A stretch of DNA of 62,963 bases, filler included, from Basidiobolus ranarum (lineage: Eukaryota), in assembly GCA_040143965.1 (NCBI GenBank). It is 10 parts of 10 records of this genome, joined end to end, with 100 filler letters (N's around TTAATTAATTAA, not from the genome) between each part and the next. Parts side by side here need not be neighbours in the genome. Positions count along the whole stretch, not along the records: positions 18,955 to 25,167 come from JASJQH010008252.1; 9 more parts are not named here. The stretch is one strand, 5' to 3'. Shown in pieces: positions 18,955 to 50,383 of this stretch (the first letter of the stretch is position 1; each line of letters opens with the position of its first letter). Below the pieces are notes generated by a model, which saw only the letters and a program-made list of their open reading frames with translations, had not been told where the DNA came from and made no database searches. The position numbers and the translations under genes are program-made.

Positions 18955-18955
18955 G

Positions 18956-19330: not shown

Positions 19331-20425
19331 TTAAGTGGATTGACTTAACTCATAGGCAAAGCCAGTAACAACTCGAGAGAATTGCAACATGTGATTGTAG
19401 TCAACTGTTTCAATAGTATCATTTGCAGAATGAATGTTCGGATTGGCTGATATATTATCACTTTCAAAATGCAAGGCGGAAGGATAGCCGGCACGGGTCC
19501 ATGACGCATGATCGGAACATCCATATCCACATCTGAACTCGCCAATTCTAAGTGTAGAATAGGCGGTGATCACCTTCTTTAGGAATGTAGTTAAACCTGG
19601 ATCAACGTTGTCTGTCACAACACCAATCACTCCCGTTTTATCGTTGAATCCAGTCATGTCTGACTGTAACATACCGATCACCTTTGTCCTAGCTTCTCTG
19701 TATTGCTTCGCAATATCGCCTGATCCGAGAAGACCTTCTTCTTCGGCTGAATACCAATGGAATTCAATGGGTCGTTTTGGTAGCAGACCACCTTGGACAA
19801 AGCTTCGATATGCTTCTAAGATGGTTACTGTACCACTGCCATCATCATCGGCACCCGGAGCTCTACCAGTGGTGGGATTGTATTGATTGATAGAGTCTTG
19901 ATGAGCTCCAATAATAACTGTCTCATTATTTCCTGATATACCTTCGATCCTTGCAATTATTGACTTCTGGACCCAAGAATGACTTACCTGACGTACACTA
20001 ATTTTCACAGCAGGACTGGTGGCAGTAATGGCAGCTATCTGCTGGTACAACCAGTTAGAGGATTCCACTCCAGTTTGAGATTGGTAATAGCGATTATTAA
20101 ATGTGACAAATTCTCTTAACCAACTCTCCATGTTGGTGGTGTTCAAGGAATCAAGAAACGGTTGAATATCTTGAGCTCCTGATAACTTCTCTGGTAAAGG
20201 AATTATTTCTGGTTTATTGAGTATTTCTAGATCCTGGGTGTCTGTGATATCGATGAAATTTCGAACTCTAGAACTTTGTATCTCCGCTTGAGACACCCAC
20301 TTCGGTGTATCATCATGGGAATATTTGAGTAGACGAAGAGAATCAATGGGTGCGGATGAGAGAGAGAGAGAGGCCAAGATATTGACAGGAATCAATAGGA
20401 CGATGAGAGTACCAATGTTCAGCAT
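19331..20425 (-). CDS. Secreted leucine aminopeptidase, peptidase family M28
   Basis: Signal peptide MLNIGTLIVLLIPVNILASLS; IGAHQDS, APGADDDGSG, SAEEEGLLGS, QSDMTG, CGYGCSDHASW, IHSAND. Confidence 0.95.
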   Translation of the reverse strand: MLNIGTLIVLLIPVNILASLSLSSAPIDSLRLLKYSHDDTPKWVSQAEIQSSRVRNFIDITDTQDLEILNKPEIIPLPEKLSGAQDIQPFLDSLNTTNMESWLREFVTFNNRYYQSQTGVESSNWLYQQIAAITATSPAVKISVRQVSHSWVQKSIIARIEGISGNNETVIIGAHQDSINQYNPTTGRAPGADDDGSGTVTILEAYRSFVQGGLLPKRPIEFHWYSAEEEGLLGSGDIAKQYREARTKVIGMLQSDMTGFNDKTGVIGVVTDNVDPGLTTFLKKVITAYSTLRIGEFRCGYGCSDHASWTRAGYPSALHFESDNISANPNIHSANDTIETVDYNHMLQFSRVVTGFAYELSQST

Positions 20426-20739: not shown

Positions 20740-21031
20740 CTATACATGATATGCAGGTGGGAGTGTCTGTTGCAGGTCTGTTGGTTCATACTTAGGTACC
20801 GGATCGTACACGTATTCGGGTAAAGCTGTGTAAGTTGGTGGTGTATCGATATTTCTTACGATTGGTTCTCTGGAAGGCCTTACTTCACTATTAGGCCTAT
20901 GCGTAAACGTAAATGGGCGCGAACAAGTTGGAGTGCTTGCAGGATAGTTACGGGTATTGTTAACAAATATTGCAGCCGAAAACAGTATCATAATGATGAT
21001 TCTAGAAGAGGATTGAATGATCTACGTTCAT
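20740..21031 (-). CDS. Small PY-motif membrane protein A (5' end apparently frameshifted)
   Basis: Hydrophobic IIIMILFSAAIFV, then PPTY, LPEY, VPKY and PPAY. TATATAAA at ~21080; the ATG at 21031 (MNVDHSILF) goes out of frame at ~21002; an in-frame ATG lies at 20991. Confidence 0.6.
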
Positions 21032-21387
21032 TTGAATGGTTCTGAGCTTAGCAATTCTGTTTCACAATCCAACTCCTTTATATACCAAATTATGTATTTC
21101 CGTGAATATCCCGATAGTTAATCCATTCACATGTTTAAATAAAAGAGGGACGGGTGTATTTAACCGAAGAGCCGAATTCATATTATATCACAGGATTGCG
21201 TTTCTCATTTCTCGCTTTTCACCTCTCATATTCCCGAATATTACTGTTTTACCCATTAAGTGAGATAATACCGATTCGTCAACCTAGCAAATGAATTAAA
21301 AAGTAAATTAACCGAACAAATAGAAACAAATGAATTTTATCATAAATGAATGCATCAAAATCCTATACAAGGGATATATCGTAAGAT

Positions 21388-21768
21388 TTAGTGATACAGC
21401 GGAAGGGAAGAAGTCACGTCAAATGTTTGCACAAGCGATTGAGGACGTGAATGGTACACTGGAGGAGGATCTATCAAACTTATGCACGATGTTGTATCTA
21501 GGGAATCCCGAGTATAAATGGGCATAAGTCCAGTGGTGCTAGATGATTGTGTTGAATGCGGTGTGTAAACAGGTGGTATGTCCTCTAGAAGGGATTGCGT
21601 CGGTCTCCATACCTGCCTCTCCACGTCTCGCATCTCATCGAGGTCACTATGTTCAGTCTTCATCCTTGCTCGTAGTGATCGAAATGTAATCGCGATAGCC
21701 AGGAGAATTAGAAACGCTGTGAAGGACGCTGCCACATTAACAGTATAATCTGATTGACCTTGGCCCAT
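21388..21768 (-). CDS. Small single-pass PY-motif protein B (126 aa)
   Basis: TM VAASFTAFLILLAIAITF followed by RSLRARMK; PPVY twice and a terminal LPLY; TATAAAA ~45 bp upstream. Confidence 0.8.
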   Translation of the reverse strand: MGQGQSDYTVNVAASFTAFLILLAIAITFRSLRARMKTEHSDLDEMRDVERQVWRPTQSLLEDIPPVYTPHSTQSSSTTGLMPIYTRDSLDTTSCISLIDPPPVYHSRPQSLVQTFDVTSSLPLYH

Positions 21769-22231
21769 GGAAACTAAGTTGTCATCAATGGTTATCTCAT
21801 GAATGTGGTGGTTTTATAGCCAAAGTTTTCATTCTATTCATACAATGCGTTAGTTTCATAAAGATCCCCTTGGCAACAACTCCTTAGTCACTTTCATCAA
21901 TTTGAATCACCCTTCGATTTGTATCAACCGTAGTTCAATCATGGGTTAAGGGGCTGATGAGGTGAGAGAGTCGAAGAGGAGGAATCATATGATGATGCTG
22001 TACGTAATTTAAAGGAAGTAAAACTGACTATAATATGACGCTGAACTCTCTTTAAACCAGGTTTTGAAAGAATGCATAATTGGTTTTATTGAGATAATAT
22101 ACAGATTGCATTAAATAAGACTATTGAGATAGTCTACCGGCATTAAATAAAGTTATGTGATTATCATTACATGAGTATCTATTTGCTGATCTCTAACTAA
22201 CTGGGTGTGTGTATATAAAATATATTACTAG

Positions 22232-22639
22232 TTAGCGCACCAATTGATACACTGGTGGAGGTAGTTGTACTTGCGTTTCTATCGGAATATGACTTGTAGT
22301 GGTAGACTGATACTCGGGCGGTGGTTCAATAATTGGTGGGTCATCCATTGATGGTTGCGATCTCATAAAAGTAGGTACAAACCTACTCAACCCACTGAAA
22401 GCCGGACTCGGTGTATACGATGGAAGGATTTCTGTTACTCCCTCAGGGTTTTCCTCAAGTGCTCTGTTCACACCTCTTTCCAGGCAAGGTGTGTTTTCGA
22501 CGTCTTCTCTCGGTGAATTTAGACTTCGCGTATGGTTCGAGTAGGCAATTAATACTCCCACAAGCATGCCCAACACTACAAATATTCCAATAATTAACCC
22601 AATGATATCTTGAAACCCGATGTCGGAAGTAGAACTCAT
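22232..22639 (-). CDS. Small single-pass PY-motif protein C (135 aa)
   Basis: TM IIGLIIGIFVVLGMLVGVLIAY; LPSY, PPPEY and PPPVY. Confidence 0.85.
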   Translation of the reverse strand: MSSTSDIGFQDIIGLIIGIFVVLGMLVGVLIAYSNHTRSLNSPREDVENTPCLERGVNRALEENPEGVTEILPSYTPSPAFSGLSRFVPTFMRSQPSMDDPPIIEPPPEYQSTTTSHIPIETQVQLPPPVYQLVR

Positions 22640-23273
22640 GAATATAATTTAGAAGAGATTGTTAAGTGGATTAAAGGTTAGATGGATTATTTATAATCAG
22701 ACATTTAGTTTGACCTCATTTTATATGACAAAATCACTTGCACTTAATCCCGTAATTCTGGCTAATTGCACAGCGATTTTTCCGTGTGTTAACCAAATCC
22801 AAACATTTGCACGATGTAATCATCAATTTTTACTCATCTCGCAAATTCAAACACTAAGATGTAGTTTAAAAGTTCAAACATTAATCACAGGACTTGTTCC
22901 CTGTGATAGTGCCAGAGGACAAGTCCACACTATGGAAACAGTGCAAATCTGCTACAAATACTATATAGTAAGAGCATATATATATATACAGAATAGAGTT
23001 GGACACATATATATATATATGCAATATATTCAGATGAGTTTCCATTCTGGTGGCTGTTTGAGCGCTCACGTATTTTAGAACGCCCTTGTCAGAATCACAA
23101 GGTTCATTAACTAGATTTGTTCTATTCTCAGAAGACAGAGAAAGGGAATATGTTACAACTATTACCATACACATGTATATATCTCACAAGACAAACACAA
23201 GGCTGATGTCATATTCCAGAGTTTCATCCATCAGGGTTAAAGTGGCGTTAGAGTGTCACCATAAGTATCGGCC

Positions 23274-23568
23274 ATGTCAATATCAGCTATAAACATCGAA
23301 TTCTTCATGGTGCGCAAGCCCCTTCTTTTACAGATAGTTGTGACCTTTGCTGCCATGATATTCTGTTACTCCCCTTCGGCTCCCATACACGCTTACCTAT
23401 ACGTAGAGTCTCCTACCCTGGAAGAGTCAGCTAGTCCACCATCCTATCGTGCAGATGTTGATGTCTTCAAGTGTTGCCTCAGATATGGTTGTGCAAATAT
23501 TGCCGGCAATTACAACTCCGTCTGGAACAGTGGTGACGATTCCACTACCTTCTTATTCAGATAACTAA
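23274..23568 (+). pseudogene. Pseudogene D, paralog of PY-motif protein F
   Basis: Aligns to 24565-25026 with a 162-nt in-frame deletion (second hydrophobic segment and a PPSY) and a 4-nt frameshift at ~23466. Confidence 0.8.
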
Positions 23569-23738
23569 CATCACATATATACCGTCATTCCACTTTTTTT
23601 ATGTACAAAATTTAGAGTAATCCCAAGAAAAATAAACCATTTCTCAACCGCTTTATCACTATACATTGCCATGTCGTATCTACCTGATGAAGATAGAAGA
23701 AGGTAAACCATCACTCTCAAAATCAGTAGATAGAGTTT

Positions 23739-23980
23739 CAACTCACTGAAAGCCGGATTTGGTGTATACGATGGAAGGATTTCTGTTACTCCTTCAGGAG
23801 TGCTCTGTTCACTCCTCTTTCCAGACAAGGTGTGTTTTCAGTGTCTTCTCTCGGTGGATTTAGACCTCACAAATGGTTCGAACAGGCAATTGTTACACCT
23901 AAAAACATGGTCAACACTACGAATAGTGCAACAATTATCCCAATAATATCTTGAAACCCGATGTTGGAAGTAGAACTCAT
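23739..23980 (-). pseudogene. Pseudogene E, paralog of PY-motif protein C
   Basis: MSSTSNIGFQDIIGIIVALFVVLTMFLGVTIACSNHL* with CGA>TGA at 23869-23867, a 10-nt deletion, and truncation after LPSYTPNPAFSEL. Confidence 0.85.
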
Positions 23981-24160
23981 GAATATAATTTAGAAGAGAT
24001 TGTTAGGTGGATTAAAGGTTAGATGGATTATTTATAATCAGACATTTAGTTTGACCTCGTTTTAAACGACAAAATCGCTTGCACTTAATCCCGTAATTCT
24101 GGCCAATAGCACAGTGCATTGAATATACAGATTCGAAAGCTAAAATGTAGTTAAAGATCT

Positions 24161-24244
24161 AAACATGAATCACACTATGGAAACATGAAGCACACTATGG
24201 AAACATGAAGCACACTATGGAAACATGAATCACACTATGGAAAC
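24161..24244. repeat. 20-bp minisatellite x4 (AAACATGAAKCACACTATGG)
   Basis: Four near-perfect units read directly; only one partial unit at the paralogous site (~22926). Confidence 0.95.
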
Positions 24245-24564
24245 AGTGCAATACCGTAAGTGTATTTACATATATAGAATAGAATTGGCCACATATATAT
24301 ATGCATCATATTCAGATGGATTTCCATTTTGGTTGATCGCTCTTGTATTTTAGAACGCTCATGTGAGGACCACAAGGCTTAATTAGCTAGATTTGTGCTA
24401 ACCTCAGAAGACAGAGAAAAGGGATATGTTGCAATTGTTGCCACACATATCTATATAGCTCCCTTAGAGTACACAAGGCTGATATCATGTGACCTCGCCA
24501 ATATTCTAGAATTTCGACCATCAGCGTTAAAGTGGCGTTAGGATATCACTATAAGTATCGGCTA

Positions 24565-25026
24565 ATGTCAATATCGCTCATAAACGTTGAATTTTTCATG
24601 ACTCGCAAATTCCTTCTCTTACTGATAGTTATGGCCTTTAGTGTCATGATATTTCGCCTCTCCATAGTGACAGTGTTCCTATTGGGTATTCTCATATTGA
24701 TATATTGTAGAACACTAAATAAAAGTCGAACAACCTTTCCAGCCGAGGAACAGGGACAATGTAGCCCACAAAGTTACCGGGAAGCTGATCCAACAATGGA
24801 AGAACTACCCCCATCCTATTACTCCCCTTCGGCTCCCATACCCGCTTACCTGCACATGGAGTATCCTACCATGGAAGAGTCAACCAGTCTACCACCCTAT
24901 AATGCCGATGGTGATGTCTCACCTTCAAGTGTGGCCTCAGGAGTGACTCGGCAAACACCGCCGACAATTACAACTCCGTCTGAAACAGTGGTGACGATTC
25001 CCCCACCTTCTTATTCGAATAACTAG
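24565..25026 (+). CDS. Small PY-motif membrane protein F (153 aa)
   Basis: Long hydrophobic region FLLLLIVMAFSVMIFRLSIVTVFLLGILILIYC; LPPSY, LPPY and PPPSY. Confidence 0.8.
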   Translation: MSISLINVEFFMTRKFLLLLIVMAFSVMIFRLSIVTVFLLGILILIYCRTLNKSRTTFPAEEQGQCSPQSYREADPTMEELPPSYYSPSAPIPAYLHMEYPTMEESTSLPPYNADGDVSPSSVASGVTRQTPPTITTPSETVVTIPPPSYSNN

Positions 25027-25167
25027 CATCAAAACCATATATACAGCCATTCCACTTTTTTATGTACATATTGTAGAGTAATTCCATGAAAATAAACCCT
25101 TGCTCAGCCGCTTTGTTACCATACATTGCCATGTCATATCTACTTGCTTCCACTACATGTATATTCG

Positions 25168-26902: not shown

Positions 26903-29205
26903 TCATTCACATCTCAGACTCAATTGCCGTATCTCTGCTTCATCCACATATTTCAGAAATAAGCATTTCGGAAACACTGATACGTCAGGTCGAAATGGGT
27001 ACCTTTTCGATAAAGTTTGGAACGAGAGCAGTCGTTTGATGACCGACGCAGTAATGCGATGCTTGTGGAAGTTGACTAGTTTAGCCGAGTCTTCTGAAGA
27101 AGGAGGTAGGTATGCCGGAAGTTCGGAATTGTAGGTCAGATCGGACAAGAATAGACCAAAGAAAGGTATACATGCCTCTCCGACCATCTTACAATCTTGA
27201 CGCTCTGGGTCACTCCACATCAAATCCCTGTAGTCTTCACTTGCTTTTCGCATGGCACCTCTGATATTCGTCCAATTCTTACAAGGGCTGGTAAATTCTT
27301 TCAGTTCGTCTAACATACGCTTCTCTTGCATGCCTACTCGTTCCCAAGTGCGTGAGAGGCGTGAAACATTCGATGATTGGAGCCCTAAGAGGATTTGAAG
27401 TAATGTACTGTAGTTTCGATGTTGGTAACAACGCTACACAAATATTCTGATGAGTAAATGGTCCTATCCAGATGTATTTTATAGACCAGTAATTACCATG
27501 GCGATGCGAACGAGCTTCTCGATGATGCGGGCCCGTTCCTCAATATGATCACAAGTCACTATCTCTGTAGCTACCCACTGGCACATCTGAATTGGATTTT
27601 TAGTAATCTATTGGATCATTCTTAAAAACGGAAATTCACTCACAATATTGAACCGATCAATCTGCGATAGTACACCACTACACTTCTCGTGACTGTCTTT
27701 ACCGGAATCGGGCTTCCACCTTACTTCTACTAGCTCGTGCCATTCGACTGCACATAGGCACCGCTGCTCAATGATACAGAATTGCTGAGCGATGGTTTCT
27801 GTGGAATATGAGAAGAGGAACGATCGCTTATGTCGGGAATTGCCGTTTCGGTCGTTGGGGGACGAGGTAACAGGACTGCCTGGTACCTCCATATCCACTA
27901 TGTACCCGTTACTGGTGCTAGAAGAACGAGACGTTCTCATATTCTGTCGGCGATCTGTGGGTTGAGAAGTTCCAAAAATTATAGAATTATATATTTCTGG
28001 AATCCTTGATTTTGAGTTTGCCAAGCTACATGCCATTCTCATAGTCCATTGGTTTAATGAAGCATCATCTGGAGGTTCGATAGGTAGATTGAGTAGTGCT
28101 AGCTTATTGCGATACAAGTTAGATTTTGCTGTACATTCGGAAGTAGATGATACAATGGAGTCAAAGGAGGTTTTATGCCCAAGTTGCTTGCTGTGGTCGT
28201 TTCCTTGATCTACATGCTCACTTAACGATGTCAGTGATCGAAGAGTTGACTGAATAGAGTCTGCAGAAGTCAACTTTTTGCATTGGTAAAGTTCGTACAA
28301 ACTAAAAATCAACTTTATGTCTTCCGAAAATTTAATGATCTGAGGGTGATTAAGCATTGATTTCAAGAAGTTCTTCAGCGTAAAGCTTAGCGTTACGGAT
28401 GAAGCAAAGTCATATGTGAAATACTCCTTGAGCCAATATTTGATGATAAGGTGGATTTGGATGCGTATTTTGCGTGATTTAACAAGTTCGGCACGTAAAG
28501 AGTCTAGAAACTTTGAGACGAGCGACTTGCAAAGCTGTACTGGCGACATAAACAGACGGTAGGATATGAAGAAGTCGGAAATAAATCTGTAATCTAAAAG
28601 GCAGTAGCCGTTAGAGAAAGATTTTGGTTACACCTAGTATAAGTGTGATTACCTGCTCCATTCACGAGTATATCTATGAGTGTTTCTACAGTTGCGGCAG
28701 AGAGTGATTTGCCACTCCTAGAGAAAGCCTTCGCCTTGCTGGGTGCTGATTTGGGTTGGCTCTTAGATGCCACTAAGTTTGCTTGTTGGATAGGATATAA
28801 ACCAGCACTGACATTATTCAAAGACTCTGAAATCTGATCTTTTTTACCGTTGCTTTTGTGCGTGGAAAAGGCTATTCTGGCTCGCTTACTTGCCTCGGCA
28901 CTTTTTATCATTTGCAATTTAGCGATACTATAATCTTCGGTTATCTCAAAAGCCTGGGCTACCTCAAACTGGGAGTATTGTTCTGTTTGTTGAGAGTACG
29001 TAGTAGTTGCATTTATCAAATCATGGACAATATCCCGAGAGATTCTTTTAGTGGTTGTTGTCAGTTCTATCGTGGAGTTCTTCTCCAATATCCCCTTTTT
29101 GACGTCGGTTAGAAAGAGCTTTTGAGTTGACTTTTGGGCTTTATATTGAGTGGTGGATGGTTCAGTCTTTTTAACCAAGTGGCTTTTCCAAGTATTTGGC
29201 CACAT
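26903..29205 (-). CDS. Ras guanine-nucleotide exchange factor (REM + CDC25 domain, Lte1-like), 4 exons
   Basis: Exons ~29205-28653, 28593-27644, 27586-27497 and 27433-26903. LSAATVETLI, FISDFFISYRLFMSP, IAQQFCIIE, CQWVATEI, NYSTLLQILLGL, CIPFFGLFLSDL, LVNFHKHR. Start codon uncertain. Confidence 0.9.
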
Positions 29206-34538: not shown

Positions 34539-36054
34539 TTAGTTCAGAGAATACTCATCTGCTCTATGGTTGTGCATCTCGTGTTCTGTTGCGTCAAGTT
34601 TGTTCTCTCGAAGACGAGTAAACAGTGCAAAAGCCACGATGATCGCATGACATATACCCAGTAAAACAAATGGCGCACCTTGCATCCACTCATCAAAGAG
34701 CCAACCACCAAGCTTGTTCACGACCATTACTGCCAAAGCACCAAAGAAACTGTATACACCAGCGACACTTCCACGAATTTCCTCATCCACATAAGGGCCA
34801 TTCACTAGGATTAAGCTAGTAACAATCATTCCAATCTGACCAAATCCAATTAATACCGCCCAAAAGTTATTAATACCAGTGAGTGGATTCTTATTGAAAG
34901 CGAATGGGAAACATCCAATAATACCAAAGACGCCTGCAATCAAGGTGGTTGTAGTTCGACGTAAACGATCACTTAGAATACCAAATATTGGTGCCCCAAT
35001 GATCGCACAAGCTTGTGCAATTCCAGACAACCGAGAGGCAATGTTGTAAGCACGAGGACAAGAAGCCTTGCCTTCACTTTCGCATAGATTATTGTCAAGA
35101 TAATATTGTGCAACCCATAAGCTTATGAAAGTTGATACAACCACAGTGTCGGCACGAGCCACAAAACTAGAGATATAACCAAGTGCAACACGTGGATCTT
35201 TCCCGGCAAGAAATCCTTTCTTTAATAAAATGAACATGTTCTCCTTTGGCTTACTAGCCTCAGCTCTTCTAGACGCTCTGTCCTTATCTTTGGGAAGAGT
35301 AAACCATAGAAAAACGCTTAGACACAATACAACTCCTCCCACAGTGTAGAAGCTAGTTTTAATTGCTTTCTCCGAATCTCCATTATAGAGAGAGGTAAAA
35401 CGAGCTGGAAGGGGAAGCAAAACTCCAACTGCAAAAAGTGCACCTATTTATATAAAAATATCCTAGAGAGTTAGAACACCTATGCAATTTGAGTGAGAAA
35501 TATTACCTTATACCTATTCCAGAGAAAAGGCCAACAACCCCAGTAACACGGCCTCTCTTATTGCTTAAACAGTCGCCCAACATAGCAGTCATCATAGAAG
35601 TGCAGGCACTAGAGCCTGCCGCAAATAATAGACGAAGTAGTAACAGACCTGGGTAGACTTCTCTGGCAGTAGTAAAAGCTAGAATACTAATGCTTGTCAG
35701 GAAAAAACCAAGAACATAGATGGGACGTCTACCGATGCGATCAGACAAAGTTCCCCATAGAACCACCATTATTATGGAGAGAATCTCGTCATAAAGACCA
35801 AGAGAGCCAGTTATGTTTCCTATGTTACCACTATCGACTTTGATGATGTCTGTGAGAACGAACGCCTGCGAAGCACCAACATACACTACAAAACAAATAG
35901 AGAATGCTACGGCTAACAAAAAGGCTATAAAGTTGATTGGCTTTATATGGGGGCGTAGTGAAAAGATCCGAAGAAAAGTTCTCTCTTCAAATTGTTCTTC
36001 ATGGGCTCTATCTAGCACTTCTGCCTTGTCGAATTCCACTTTTGTATCCGTCAT
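34539..36054 (-). CDS. MFS transporter, 2 exons
   Basis: Exons 36054-35514 and 35443-34539 with a GT-AG intron; motif A WGTLSDRIGRR and a second FGILSDRLRR; about 12 TM helices. Confidence 0.92.
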
Positions 36055-48459: not shown

Positions 48460-50383
48460 GAGTCACTTTTTTTCTAATTTTAATGCTCCCACTGAACTAA
48501 TTATTTTGCCTTTCTCTCAAACCTAACTTGTATTTCATTACTTCCAATTGTGCTTTAACAAAAGGTTTGATTCAGTTGTCAGCAATCATTTGTTCCATAG
48601 GGCAATAGAGAAGTTTAATTATACTATCATCTCCTGCTTGTCTAACGGAATGATGCCAAATATCAATATGTTTTATAGTAGCTTGAAATGTAGGGTCCTT
48701 AGCTAATGAAATACAGCTTTGCTTATGTTCAATTACGGTTACAGCTAAGTCCTTAAAAAACTTATTCAACCACATAGCTTCTTGTGGAGTAGCAGAGGCA
48801 GCCATGTAATCTACTTCTGTAGTGAAAGTGCTTTGGTGGGTTGCTTTGTACTATTCTAATGATGGCCCCATTATTCTAGAGAAAAGGGCACACATTTCTT
48901 GATCTTTTATCATTAAGGCTTGCTTTCCAGTCTGAATCATTGCAGCCTTCCAGAATGGGTGCATCAGGAGTGGCAGAGTAGTCCAGGACTACAACTTTAG
49001 TTCCTTGCAAATACCTGAATATTTCTTTTGCTGCCTTTTGTGCTCAGGCACTGGAGATCTGAGATATTGGCTGACAGTTCCCACTGCCATCGCAATGTCT
49101 AGATGTGTTCCAACCGTTGTATATATTGAACTCCCCATCATGGATTAATAAGGGAACTCATTGCTTTGATATAAGTCACTTTAGGTCAAATTGGATGATA
49201 TTTTGACTAATCTCACATTGGGATCCATTGATGTTGATACAAGCTTGCTATTCTCCATGTAGAAGCATTTTAAGATATCTAGGATGCATCTAGACTGATT
49301 CAGCATGAATTTCCCACTTGGTTTATATCTCTTGAGTTGGATTCCAAGGAAATAACTTAAATAACCCATATCAATCTTCTGAAGTTGCTTTGATAAGCTG
49401 CTTTTTGTCTGTTTTAGTGCTTCTAGATCATATGTGACTGTGATCAAGTCATTCACATATAGTGCTAAGAGAGGATCCCATTTCAGGTTGTTCTTATGCA
49501 AATGCTGTGTTCTACTGTGCATTTTTGGAACTCCAGTGATTCCAAATAGGTATCTAGTTTGTTCTACCATGCCCTGGGTGCTTGCTTGAGTCCATGTTGC
49601 AATATTTTTAGTTTACAAACAATATAGAGGGGTTTTTGGTCAATGAATTCATCTGGTTGCTGCATATTGATTTCTTCTTGTAGATTTCCATTCCAAAAGA
49701 CTGTTTTTACATCCATTTAATGTAAATCAAGGTAATGGATGGCTGCAAGTGCCAGGATTGATCTAATAGAGCAAACCTTACCTACTGGAGCAAAGATTTC
49801 ATTAATTCAAAGCCCACAGTCTGGGAATAGGCTTTTACAACTACTCTTGAACTGTGCCTTTTTATTTCATCAACTTGGTTTTTGCCTTTGTAGACCCGTT
49901 TGCTATCTATTGGCTTTTGTCCTGATGGTAGAGAACTTAAAACCATGCTTTATTTTCCCAAAGTGAATATAACTCATTGGACATAACTTTTTCCCATAAT
50001 TTTAAATCTGGATACCCCAGATCTTCCTCAAGAGTCTGTGGCTCATTACAGATAGCTTCATAAGCACAAACATCAGTAGGCCTAAGATCTATCATAGTTA
50101 CCAACAAATACTCATGTTATGCTTTTGGGTTCCAATTTAGAACATTTTTGCACTTGAATTAGGCAATATACTGTGCAACCAAAGATCCTTAAATAATCCA
50201 CACTTGGTTTCAAACCATATAGAGCTTTAAATGGAGTAGAAACTTGTAGCTAAATTGCTTGGCATCTACTTTTAAATAGACAGCAGTGTAGACAGATTCA
50301 GCCCAATATTAGTAATCCAACATTTGATAATGTAACATTGCTCTTGCCATCTCCACTTTGGTCCTATTATGATGTTATGCTAC
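48460..50383 (-). mobile_element. Degenerate Copia pol (integrase end, RT, RNase H), PPT and LTR stub
   Basis: WAESVYTA, MDVKTVFWNGNLQEE, LALYVNDL, YFLGIQ, GTHLDIAMAV, KHIDIWHHSVR; TCAGTGGGAG PPT-like tract at ~48490. Confidence 0.92.

Follow-up and report, generated by a model that had tools for sequence, protein, structure and literature searches.

Ligases of the Rsp5/NEDD4 type select their membrane-protein targets via PY-motif adaptors. The known membrane-embedded adaptors belong to few, old families (Rcr, Bsd2/NDFIP, Ear1/Ssh4 and Sna3), among which the NDFIPs have three membrane helices, while two helices and a single PY motif are typical of Sna3. Sna3 is described as a very small membrane protein whose PPxY motif binds Rsp5 and whose endosomal sorting depends on this binding. 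Rcr1/Rcr2, fly Comm and human PRRG4 are presented as small type-I PY membrane proteins (Zhu 2020, PMC7401822; Justice 2017, PMC5578492). The PY motifs in the cytosolic tails of Rcr1/Rcr2 are reported to bind Rsp5, lysines in these tails to decide the proteins' own fate, and an exomer sorting motif (LxYYD plus LxxPxxxVV) to be conserved in fungal Rcr1/Rcr2 (Zhu 2020, PMC7401822). NDFIPs are described as membrane-embedded and as needing the three PY motifs of their cytoplasmic sequence for ligase activation; this sequence is reported to be active only when tethered or polymerised, the soluble form giving no activation (Mund 2018, PMC5892558). In the wtf antidote of fission yeasts, three PY motifs of the N-terminal tail are reported to bind Rsp5-family ligases redundantly; lysines are needed and the protein itself is the substrate (PMC10721834). 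The pattern [LP]PxY is given as the WW class-I consensus (PMC7401822, PMC10721834). Full-text literature searches returned no paper on a fungal tandem array of genes for small membrane proteins with PY motifs.

Here, we analysed such a cluster in Basidiobolus ranarum (assembly GCA_040143965.1). The window, that is, the whole stretch of 62,963 nucleotides under study, is a concatenation of ten contigs, each about 6.2 kb long, with N linkers in between. The true context of the cluster is therefore the contig at 18955–25167 only. On this contig, three genes are intact (B, C and F), one is doubtful (A) and two are decayed (D and E; Table 1). All ORFs were found where the first-pass annotation had placed them. 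Its count of four genes stood for B, C and F, which are intact, and is doubtful for A, which has no usable start for its helix. The tail of A is intact, but a full membrane helix needs reading up to 21021, 10 codons before its ATG, and no in-frame upstream ATG covering this helix was found up to that position; the nearest upstream ATG, at 21032, is one base out of frame. A is doubtful because an in-frame ATG for the complete hydrophobic segment is missing; a frameshift or decay of this copy, or else a mistake in the assembly, is the probable cause. For F, the public gene call starts at Met12 (142 aa), and a start at Met28 would give a single-helix protein.

Table 1. Features of the PY-motif gene cluster, with positions along the window
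Feature	Position	Strand	Description
A	20740-20991	-	83 aa from its ATG; PPTY, LPEY, PPAY plus variant VPKY
B	21388-21768	-	126 aa; helix ~12-29; PPVY 65, PPVY 102, LPLY 122
C	22232-22639	-	135 aa; helix ~12-32; LPSY 72, PPEY 107, PPVY 128
D	23274-23564	+	96 aa ORF; decayed copy of F
E	about 23738-23980	-	decayed, 3'-truncated copy of C
F	24565-25026	+	153 aa; PPSY 82, LPPY 109, PPSY 147 plus variant IPAY
Tandem duplication unit 1	22387-23737	.	5' two-thirds of C, shared intergenic region, D
Tandem duplication unit 2	23738-25148	.	E, intergenic region, F

About three PPxY/LPxY motifs per gene, one of them C-terminal, had been claimed for A, B, C and F. Each contains exactly three [LP]PxY motifs, the last of which ends 2 (A), 1 (B), 4 (C) and 3 (F) residues before the C-terminus. 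Eight of the 12 motifs are PPxY and four are LPxY; A, B and F each have one additional xPxY variant. Spacing is similar as well, with 21 (A), 20 (B) and 21 (C) residues between PY2 and PY3 and 37 (B) and 35 (C) residues between PY1 and PY2. As a control, we searched all ATG-ORFs of at least 60 aa in the window (n = 84): 76 were without [LP]PxY, four had one motif and four had three, and the only ORFs with more than one motif were A, B, C and F. The window's ORFs that lie outside the cluster contained 3 motifs in 10,835 aa. The 497 aa of A, B, C and F together thus contain 12 motifs versus 0.14 expected (Poisson 8.5e-20, which treats the 12 motifs as independent, shared ancestry of paralogues inflating the motif count). 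If the four are paralogous, the point becomes retention of the motifs while the rest diverged to the 21–29% overall identity found among the cluster proteins.

Beyond the motifs, the four proteins had been thought to show little similarity; in fact they align collinearly. Pairwise BLASTP gave E values of 0.009 (B-C), 5e-4 (B-F) and 0.004 (C-F), and hhalign of B+C versus F+P0004 (see below) reached a probability of 67% (E 5e-5) over 84 tail columns. In the four-way alignment, the only invariant columns were I27, E62, P66, Y68 and P83, corresponding to PY1 with its preceding acidic residue and the P of the second xPx[YF]. These comparisons suggest that B, C and F form one divergent family. A 149-aa protein, P0004, matched F with an E value of 1e-13 and 35% identity across 123 aa; identity was densest at F residues 81–112 (PPSYYSP.AP.P.YL..YPT...SLP.Y). 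P0004 has four [LP]PxY motifs, one helix, no lysine and six arginines. Conservation of PY motifs in relatives, on which the first-pass annotation had made its proposal depend, is therefore seen in the sole outside homologue found, in which the PY core is retained but which may be a paralogue of F within one organism. Other homologues of the cluster were not detected among 1.84 billion representatives, nor were any of B and C among 5.8 billion clustered proteins or these representatives. Since B and C are orphans, F and P0004 are the one pair in which cross-species motif conservation could be seen.

Hydrophobicity and structure prediction gave a common architecture. Kyte-Doolittle maxima (17 residues) were 2.44 for B, 3.15 for C and 2.79 for F. 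B has a short N-terminus and a single helix directly followed by RSLRARMK; its AlphaFold2 model comprises one helix at residues 4–39 (pLDDT 92–93 over residues 11–30) and coil past residue 46 (pLDDT about 50–60). Atlas models also consist of a helix and a disordered tail (pLDDT 0.58 and 0.54). That is, B, C and F are predicted to have one membrane helix and a disordered tail. In F, two hydrophobic stretches (16–30 and 32–48) are separated by a single Arg; the first resembles a signal peptide, whereas it is the second that corresponds to the sole helix of P0004 in the alignment. A Sna3-type hairpin in F was rejected, given this single Arg and the alignment of only the second stretch with P0004.

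We then compared the cluster with the described families. B, C and F are short proteins with one helix and an L/PPxY tail, as in the Comm/PRRG4/Rcr class. The likeness to Rcr1/Rcr2 of S. cerevisiae (PF12273), as far as described, extends to small size, a short N-terminus predicted to lie outside, one helix and an L/PPxY-type tail. However, three canonical motifs are present here instead of the PPSY and VPEY pair of Rcr, the last motif is at the very C-terminus, the tails are almost lysine-free, and the genes form a cluster that includes a tandem duplication and pseudogenes. Membership in the RCR family was rejected for lack of a PF12273 match (A, B, C, D and F at E ≤ 1; P0004 at E ≤ 0.001), and a regular expression for the exomer motif LxYYD/LxxPxxxVV found it in none of five proteins (A, B, C, F and P0004). 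Likewise, hmmscan gave no match to any Pfam family. The RCR, WBP1 and Shisa profiles, proposed earlier as places to look for relatives, and those of NDFIP and Sna had no hit within the same E limits (1 for the five cluster ORFs, 0.001 for P0004). In a language-model search, 24 of the 30 clusters nearest to B were unnamed, and the three shown were fungal (best score 0.93). For B as for C, no named family scored higher than RCR, with 127–132 features in common, at scores (B 0.81, rank 14; C 0.82/0.79) that lie below the 0.9 bar. These neighbours serve as leads only.

Similar to NDFIP1/NDFIP2 of animals and Bsd2 of yeast, the proteins would present a membrane-tethered cytosolic sequence with three PY motifs, but this sequence is described as N-terminal cytoplasmic in NDFIP (PMC5892558) and is a C-terminal tail here. 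Membership in NDFIP/Bsd2 was rejected on the single helix, the position of the motifs C-terminal to it and the missing Pfam match. With Sna3 of yeast they share very small size and PPxY in a membrane protein; Sna3/Pmp3 membership was rejected, since no Pfam match was found and B and C have one helix. The nearest described case found for the cluster is the wtf family, like it a fast-evolving, multi-copy fungal family with a three-PY tail described as cytosolic. In contrast to the cluster proteins, with one helix and almost no lysines, wtf proteins are reported to have several helices and an N-terminal PY tail with 7 lysines (PMC10721834), and no toxin partner is evident at the cluster.

Taken together, we consider it somewhat probable (about 0.55) that B, C and F are specific to this lineage and, tethered to a membrane, use their three PY motifs to recruit or activate a ligase of the Rsp5 type; they would act like Rcr1, Comm/PRRG4 or NDFIP yet outside those families. 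B, C and F, and perhaps once A, would then be genuine genes, restricted to the lineage and members of a single family that diverges rapidly. They would encode very small single-pass proteins whose short N-terminus is extracellular or luminal and whose one helix is followed by a disordered cytosolic tail of about 100 residues. This tail would offer three canonical PY motifs (plus the xPxY variant in A, B and F) to WW domains of the Rsp5/NEDD4 type. Several tethered motifs may bring the ligase to a particular membrane and probably open it there, so that it could ubiquitinate membrane proteins nearby; where the proteins reside or which clients they choose would depend on their divergent helices and linkers. 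We infer topology, WW binding, adaptor role and expression of the cluster proteins from sequence.

A feature absent from the first-pass annotation is lysine depletion of the tails. The tails of A, B, C and F contain 3 lysines in 377 residues versus 22.6 expected from the 6.0% lysine in 13 long ORFs of the window (binomial 2e-7), with a normal number of arginines (25; R:K test 7.7e-6). C is lysine-free over its whole 135 aa and P0004 over its 149 aa, and the tail of B has one lysine; C and P0004 thus show the long lysine-free stretch, kept in relatives, that characterises a lysine desert. Such deserts have been linked to disordered proteins of the ubiquitin system (PMC10169902). A lysine-poor tail fits a protein that adjoins a ubiquitin ligase yet is not consumed by it; in the recruiter reading, it would spare the recruiter from ubiquitination and destruction.

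The same feature bears on two alternatives. One is that the proteins are self-sorting cargo or substrates, whose PY motifs bring Rsp5 for their own ubiquitination, or for a ubiquitin-free ride, to the vacuole. Rcr2 (PMC7401822) and the wtf antidote (PMC10721834) are described as using PY motifs in this way, Sna3 as behaving likewise, and cytosolic lysines as deciding ubiquitination and vacuole delivery of Rcr2 or Rcr1 (Zhu 2020, PMC7401822). The lone lysines of B (KTE) and A (KYE) adjoin acidic residues and are possible acceptor sites. However, the wtf antidote tail is reported to require 7 lysines (PMC10721834) and Rcr2 its 4 (PMC7401822), whereas the tails here are strongly depleted and C and P0004 have no lysine at all, which makes cargo unlikely. 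Alternatively, lysine-free multi-PY tails could act as ligase sinks or decoys that occupy WW domains, keep Rsp5 from its adaptors and damp turnover. Three PY motifs, a membrane tether and a lysine desert would serve a decoy as well as an adaptor, and a regulator that acts by dosage could be expected to diverge quickly and to vary in copy number, as seen here. But no sequence feature specifically supports inhibition, and tethered multi-PY sequences are reported to activate WW-HECT ligases in the system tested (PMC5892558); we regard decoys as improbable. As judged from sequence, the adaptor, decoy and cargo readings are inseparable.

Just as improbable as decoys, in our view, is that the Pro-x-Tyr motifs serve other proline-recognition domains, tyrosine sorting or phosphorylation, or that the tail points outward. 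The N-terminus of B, MGQGQS, fits the N-myristoylation pattern (MGxxxS), and this modification, if used, would place the N-terminus in the cytosol and the tail outside. In A, C and F, Asn-x-Ser/Thr sequons (NNT, NHT and NKS) follow the helix at a distance of 1–4 residues, but sequons that close to a membrane helix are too near for glycosylation. Lysines plus arginines just after versus before the helix, counted by eye, stood at 4:0 (B), 2:0 (C) and 3:1 (F), a positive-inside count that favours cytosolic PY tails in these three proteins. A prediction of luminal or extracellular tails, which the first-pass annotation had named as a refutation, was not obtained. In addition, all 12 motifs are of the class-I WW consensus, and there is no evident reason for lysine avoidance outside the cell.

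D and E stem from the tandem duplication, with a unit of 1.35 kb, of a C-type and an F-type gene lying head to head, as seen from 14 direct-repeat families with a spacing of 1275–1462 nt and 78–93% identity. D has lost its membrane helix, linker and PY1 by a 162-nt in-frame deletion, and a further 5-nt deletion shifts the frame ahead of the C-terminal PY motif. E is interrupted by a TGA in frame and lacks 10 nt; its homology stops at the duplication junction, and PY2 and PY3 are therefore missing. That D and E are pseudogenes, as first annotated, is borne out by these stops and indels acquired after duplication, and the proposed birth-and-death evolution is real, given a tandem duplication and two or three decayed copies. 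Since the homology of unit 2 stops about 20 nt before the contig end, the array may continue beyond the assembly. C and F are still open across 135 and 153 codons. Codon-usage scores of A to F (-0.06 to +0.01) lie between those of 32 spurious ORFs (-0.11, SD 0.08) and 41 true coding chunks (+0.12, SD 0.09). pN/pS was 0.67 for C versus E and 0.89 for F versus D, with flat differences by codon position (13/8/10 and 19/19/15, respectively); clear purifying selection was not seen in these pairs, in each of which one partner is a pseudogene. At this composition, a stop-free run of 126 codons has a probability of 2.3e-4 per start, and by rough estimate one or two such ORFs could arise by chance in 63 kb. 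The least probable reading is that the genes are non-functional, an ancestral gene with PY motifs having been duplicated and its copies now decaying, some with reading frames that happen to be still open: visible damage in three of six copies (A, D and E), the intermediate codon score, pN/pS without clear selection, the orphan status of B and C and the chance-ORF estimate speak for it, but three ORFs of 126–153 codons stayed open while D and E decayed over the same time, motifs, spacing and lysine avoidance are kept at 21–29% identity, and the F homologue P0004 has the same traits.

If B, C and F are recruiters of an Rsp5-type ligase, PY adaptors can arise and turn over fast as orphan, clustered genes, and a triple PY motif with a lysine-free tail would be their minimal conserved design. 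Homology searches would miss such adaptors, and a pattern of helix, at least two PY motifs and lysine depletion could find them; the lysine desert would be a testable design rule. A further reading, which we think quite unlikely, is that the cluster is an evolving arsenal and not a housekeeping set, its lysine-free triple-PY proteins being quickly duplicated, diversified and discarded under conflict or a fast-changing regulatory need. They might, for example, divert or sequester Rsp5, the one essential ligase of its kind in the cell, at particular membranes, loosely like wtf drivers, which also exploit it; the C-type and F-type genes, lying head to head, would then act as a two-part unit. In that case, multi-PY lysine deserts would be a recurrent, independently invented way of hijacking or tuning NEDD4-family ligases in fungi.

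The ORFs reported in the first-pass annotation were recovered at their positions, and its count of about three PPxY/LPxY motifs per gene, one of them at the extreme C-terminus, proved exact. A, B, C and F, which would encode small membrane proteins, each carry precisely three [LP]PxY motifs (PY1 to PY3 along the tail), with 2, 1, 4 and 3 residues, respectively, between the last of them and the stop. Strict PPxY accounts for 8 of the 12 canonical motifs, and an additional variant xPxY is present in A, B and F. PY2 and PY3 are spaced by 21 residues in A and C and by 20 in B. Among the 84 ATG-initiated ORFs of at least 60 aa in the window, 76 contain no such motif, four contain one, and only A, B, C and F contain three. 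The window ORFs outside the cluster yielded 3 [LP]PxY in 10,835 aa; the 497 aa of A, B, C and F hold 12 versus 0.14 expected (Poisson 8.5e-20, a value that treats motifs as independent, which they are not if the four are paralogues). For paralogues, the enrichment means that divergence of the remainder left the motifs in place.

Features of the cluster, its contig and the other contigs (positions along the window)
Feature	Position	Strand	Description
A	20740-20991	-	83 aa
B	21388-21768	-	126 aa
N-terminus of B	21751-21768	-	MGQGQS
C	22232-22639	-	135 aa
D	23274-23564	+	decayed copy
E	~23738-23980	-	decayed copy
F	24565-25026	+	153 aa
Duplication unit 1	22387-23737		direct-repeat families; intact C + decayed D
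Duplication unit 2	23738 to ~25148		direct-repeat families; decayed E + intact F
20-nt unit, ~4x head to tail	24142-24245		E-F intergenic
20-nt unit, once	~22920-22940		C-D intergenic
120 nt upstream of C	22640-22760		compared with E
120 nt upstream of E	23981-24100		compared with C
Antisense ORF, 65 aa	21330-21527	+	lysine-rich; overlaps 3' end of B
M28 peptidase, secreted-type	19331-20425	-	Pfam E 9.6e-36; the contig's other gene besides the cluster
PD-(D/E)XK nuclease-domain ORF, 324 aa	16096-17070	-	PDDEXK_9, E 4.5e-17
RasGEF gene	26906-29205	-	several ORFs, broken partly by short gaps
MFS transporter gene	34539-36054	-	several ORFs, broken partly by short gaps
Copia-type reverse transcriptase fragment	49184-49570	-	RVT_2, E 3.6e-8

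Beyond this architecture the four had been thought to share little similarity, a view that the alignments contradict. BLASTP gave collinear alignments (E 0.009 for B-C, 5e-4 for B-F and 0.004 for C-F), and a profile of B and C matched one of F and P0004, a 149-aa protein that is the sole homologue found outside the cluster, with 67% probability (E 5e-5, 84 tail columns). The only invariant columns in the four-way alignment of A, B, C and F are I27, E62, P66, Y68 and P83, which correspond to PY1, an acidic residue and a second xPx[YF]. These comparisons suggest that the four probably form one divergent family, although compositional bias could contribute. F and P0004 are clear homologues (BLASTP E 1e-13, 35% identity over 123 aa), with identity concentrated in the PY1-PY2 core (F residues 81-112). 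P0004 carries four [LP]PxY motifs and 6 arginines, and its single helix lies two residues from the N-terminus.

When 1.84 billion representatives were searched exhaustively with an HMMER profile (E up to 0.001), four matches were returned, namely the window's own three proteins and P0004 (E 4.5e-4), while a word-indexed search of 5.8 billion clustered proteins returned self-matches only (1 of 15 candidates for C, 1 of 14 for B and 1 of 132 for F). At E up to 1, none of A, B, C and D matched a Pfam family; an SP24 hit to F (E 0.057, 13.8 bits versus a cut-off of 30) fell on its hydrophobic stretch and was judged a chance match. Using tblastn with five proteins, no further member was detected on the other nine contigs and the P0004 gene was not found within the window; weak matches fell on the proline-rich region of a formin. 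Zero relative loci were confirmed among the pattern matches in metagenome contigs (82 and 226 in two scans) and viral contigs (41 in one scan). PDB sequences gave four matches to the family profile (E 0.79-2.5), none meaningful and all confined to profile positions 4-48, the N-terminal part with the membrane helix.

A feature absent from the first-pass annotation is that the tails avoid lysine. The four tails contain 3 Lys in 377 residues versus 22.6 expected from the 6.0% Lys of 13 long ORFs in the window (binomial 2e-7), whereas arginine is normal (25 residues; R:K test 7.7e-6). C and P0004 contain zero lysine (P ~1e-4 at 6%). The G+C content of the window is 39%, and in a genome of this composition the depletion cannot be a base-composition effect. 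In the published account of Rcr2, four cytosolic lysines are required for Rsp5-dependent vacuolar sorting; their exchange for Arg redirects the protein to the plasma membrane, and lysines added to Rcr1 send it to the vacuole (Zhu 2020, PMC7401822). The three-PY tail of the wtf antidote is reported to require seven lysines, the protein itself being the substrate (PMC10721834), and lysine deserts are described as common among disordered proteins of the ubiquitin system (PMC10169902). From these results, a lysine-free multi-PY tail would be expected of a protein that holds a ligase and is not consumed by it.

L/P-P-x-Y motifs bind the WW domains of Rsp5/NEDD4 ligases (Zhu 2020, PMC7401822; PMC10721834), of which the fission-yeast Rsp5-family member has three (PMC10721834). 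NDFIPs, which are membrane proteins, depend on three cytoplasmic PY motifs for ligase activation; the NDFIP tail fails to activate in soluble form (PMC5892558), so tethering matters. The main Rsp5-binding motif of Rcr1 is reported to be a variant, VPEY (Justice 2017, PMC5578492). The same elements come together in B, C and F: anchoring in the membrane, three canonical motifs and a disordered, lysine-poor tail (0 Lys in C). On the NDFIP and Rcr1 precedent, we propose that B, C and F would recruit or activate the organism's Rsp5 from a membrane tether, with place or client determined by their divergent helices and linkers, and we assign this reading a probability of roughly 55%. The motifs are present, conserved and free of lysine; each mechanistic step beyond that is what we infer from them. 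The chief alternative, that the proteins are cargo using the motifs for their own sorting, has a three-PY precedent in the wtf antidote, but the lysines on which that protein and Rcr2 depend are nearly missing here, and we regard it as unlikely. A still smaller chance falls to ligase decoys, which would also hold a ligase without being consumed; in NDFIPs, three tethered PY motifs serve activation instead.

B, C and F each contain a strongly hydrophobic segment, with Kyte-Doolittle 17-residue maxima of 2.44 in B, 3.15 in C and 2.79 in F. AlphaFold2, run for B on the four-sequence alignment, predicted a single helix at residues 4-39 (pLDDT 92-93 over 11-30) and coil from residue 46 onward (pLDDT ~50-60); in the Atlas models, mean pLDDT is 0.58 for B and 0.54 for C. 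Counted by eye over 15 residues each side of the helix, K+R after versus before it are 4:0 (B), 2:0 (C) and 3:1 (F, counted from Met28), and every charge of P0004 is located after its helix. By the established positive-inside rule, this asymmetry predicts that the tails of B, C and F are cytosolic, and not luminal or extracellular, the arrangement that had been named as speaking against adaptors. That the motifs serve some other purpose, or that the tail faces outward, is about as improbable as decoys: the charges point the other way, whereas the N-terminus of B fits the N-myristoylation pattern, which, if used, would argue for the opposite orientation from the outward N-terminus indicated by charge. 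In F, a first hydrophobic stretch follows MTRK, the start of the public gene call. The P0004 helix aligns with the second stretch, so the first looks like a signal peptide, or translation starts at Met28; the tail is on the same side under either start. One to four residues past the helix, A, C and F have N-x-[ST] followed by Arg (NNTR, NHTR and NKSR). Such sites are too near the membrane for glycosylation, and the sequence may thus be a juxtamembrane family motif.

We consider B, C and F very probably real genes. They stay open while the duplicates D and E gained stops and indels, they keep spacing, motifs and lysine avoidance at 21-29% identity, and they were independently called in a public collection; the motif statistics and the homologue of F argue in the same direction. 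Codon-usage scores in the cluster range from -0.06 to +0.01, between the means of 32 spurious ORFs (-0.11) and 41 true chunks (+0.12). With one partner of each pair a pseudogene, pN/pS near 1 is expected, so that the values of 0.67 (C/E) and 0.89 (F/D), like the even spread of differences over codon positions, give no sign of constraint either way. A run of 126 stop-free codons has a probability of 2.3e-4 per start, so ORF length alone proves little. Non-functional remnants would fit the intermediate codon scores, but the intact frames and retained motifs make them the least likely alternative. The antisense ORF at the 3' end of B has a codon-usage score of +0.06 versus -0.06 for B, and zero Pfam matches.

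Four apparent genes had been proposed, and of these B, C and F are intact, but A has a doubtful start. From its own ATG, the hydrophobic run is just ~10 residues (maximum 0.51); read from ten codons upstream, which contain no in-frame ATG, the helix score is 1.99. The first ATG that follows the upstream TATATAA box, at 21032, is shifted by one base from the frame of A and meets a stop after nine codons. The sole GT...AG intron candidate that could rescue the start is 24 nt long and leaves the wrong frame. Since the RasGEF and MFS genes are interrupted in part by short gaps, the genome appears to have short introns, a point to consider when small ORFs such as A are modelled as genes. As judged from the reading frames, A is doubtful as a gene: its tail is intact, and either the copy is frameshifted or the assembly is in error here. 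A, B and C were rejected as exons of a single gene; each has its own initial helix and its own stop following the terminal PY. Upstream of A, B, C and F, 0 8-mers are shared versus 1.4 expected from shuffles. TATA-like boxes occur upstream of A (-93), B (-50) and C (-86/-56), with none near F, and carry reduced weight in an AT-rich genome.

D and E are decayed, as annotated, but they are not independent relics. The contig contains 14 direct-repeat families with a spacing of 1275-1462 nt and 78-93% identity, and these show a tandem duplication that produced both. What was duplicated is a pair of genes arranged head to head, their starts ~600 nt apart. D has suffered a 162-nt in-frame deletion, losing helix, linker and PY1, plus a 5-nt deletion; E has a TGA and a 10-nt deletion, and its homology stops at the duplication junction. 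Repeat homology ends ~20 nt before the contig end, so the tandem array may extend beyond the contig. In one of the two duplicates, the 20-nt unit has expanded within the shared promoter region. Over the 120 nt preceding C and E there are 5 differences (4%), versus 17% at synonymous sites in the coding part, which could reflect local gene conversion or conservation of a regulatory or 5'-UTR element.

The window (62,963 bases) consists of ten contigs of ~6.2 kb joined by N44-TTAATTAATTAA-N44 linkers (N runs). As these are artificial, features on different contigs are not genomic neighbours, and the real context of the cluster is its own contig only (18955-25167, 6,213 bases). The other contigs encode a formin, an Mrc1-like protein, a glycogen debranching enzyme and MFS transporters, as well as a fasciclin protein, a fungal-type bestrophin, the RasGEF gene with its short gaps and the copia-type fragment, a retroelement remnant on a contig other than the cluster's. 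PDDEXK_9, matched by the nuclease-domain ORF, is a mostly prokaryotic family.

B, C and F resemble small type-I PY-motif membrane proteins (Rcr1/2, Comm, PRRG4), and share the triple PY with NDFIP/Bsd2. Membership of the RCR family was rejected: the profile search proposed against Rcr1-type families left the RCR model unmatched, the exomer sorting motif was found in 0 of five proteins and language-model likeness was just 0.81-0.82. NDFIP or Sna3 membership was likewise rejected, since these proteins differ in the number of helices and the position of the tail, and Pfam gave no match. The nearest published case is the wtf family, but wtf proteins are multi-helix. In the literature consulted, we also found no tandem cluster of small PY-motif membrane-protein genes in fungi, in agreement with the first-pass annotation. 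Its observation is thus confirmed and sharpened, and its interpretation partly supported: the motifs, the homologue and the tail side predicted by charge favour adaptors, whereas the proteins belong to none of the RCR, NDFIP and Sna3 families and A is doubtful. What the sequences partly support is that the cluster would be an orphan, fast-turning-over addition to the known ligase-adaptor class, with the lysine desert as a clear design rule of its tails.
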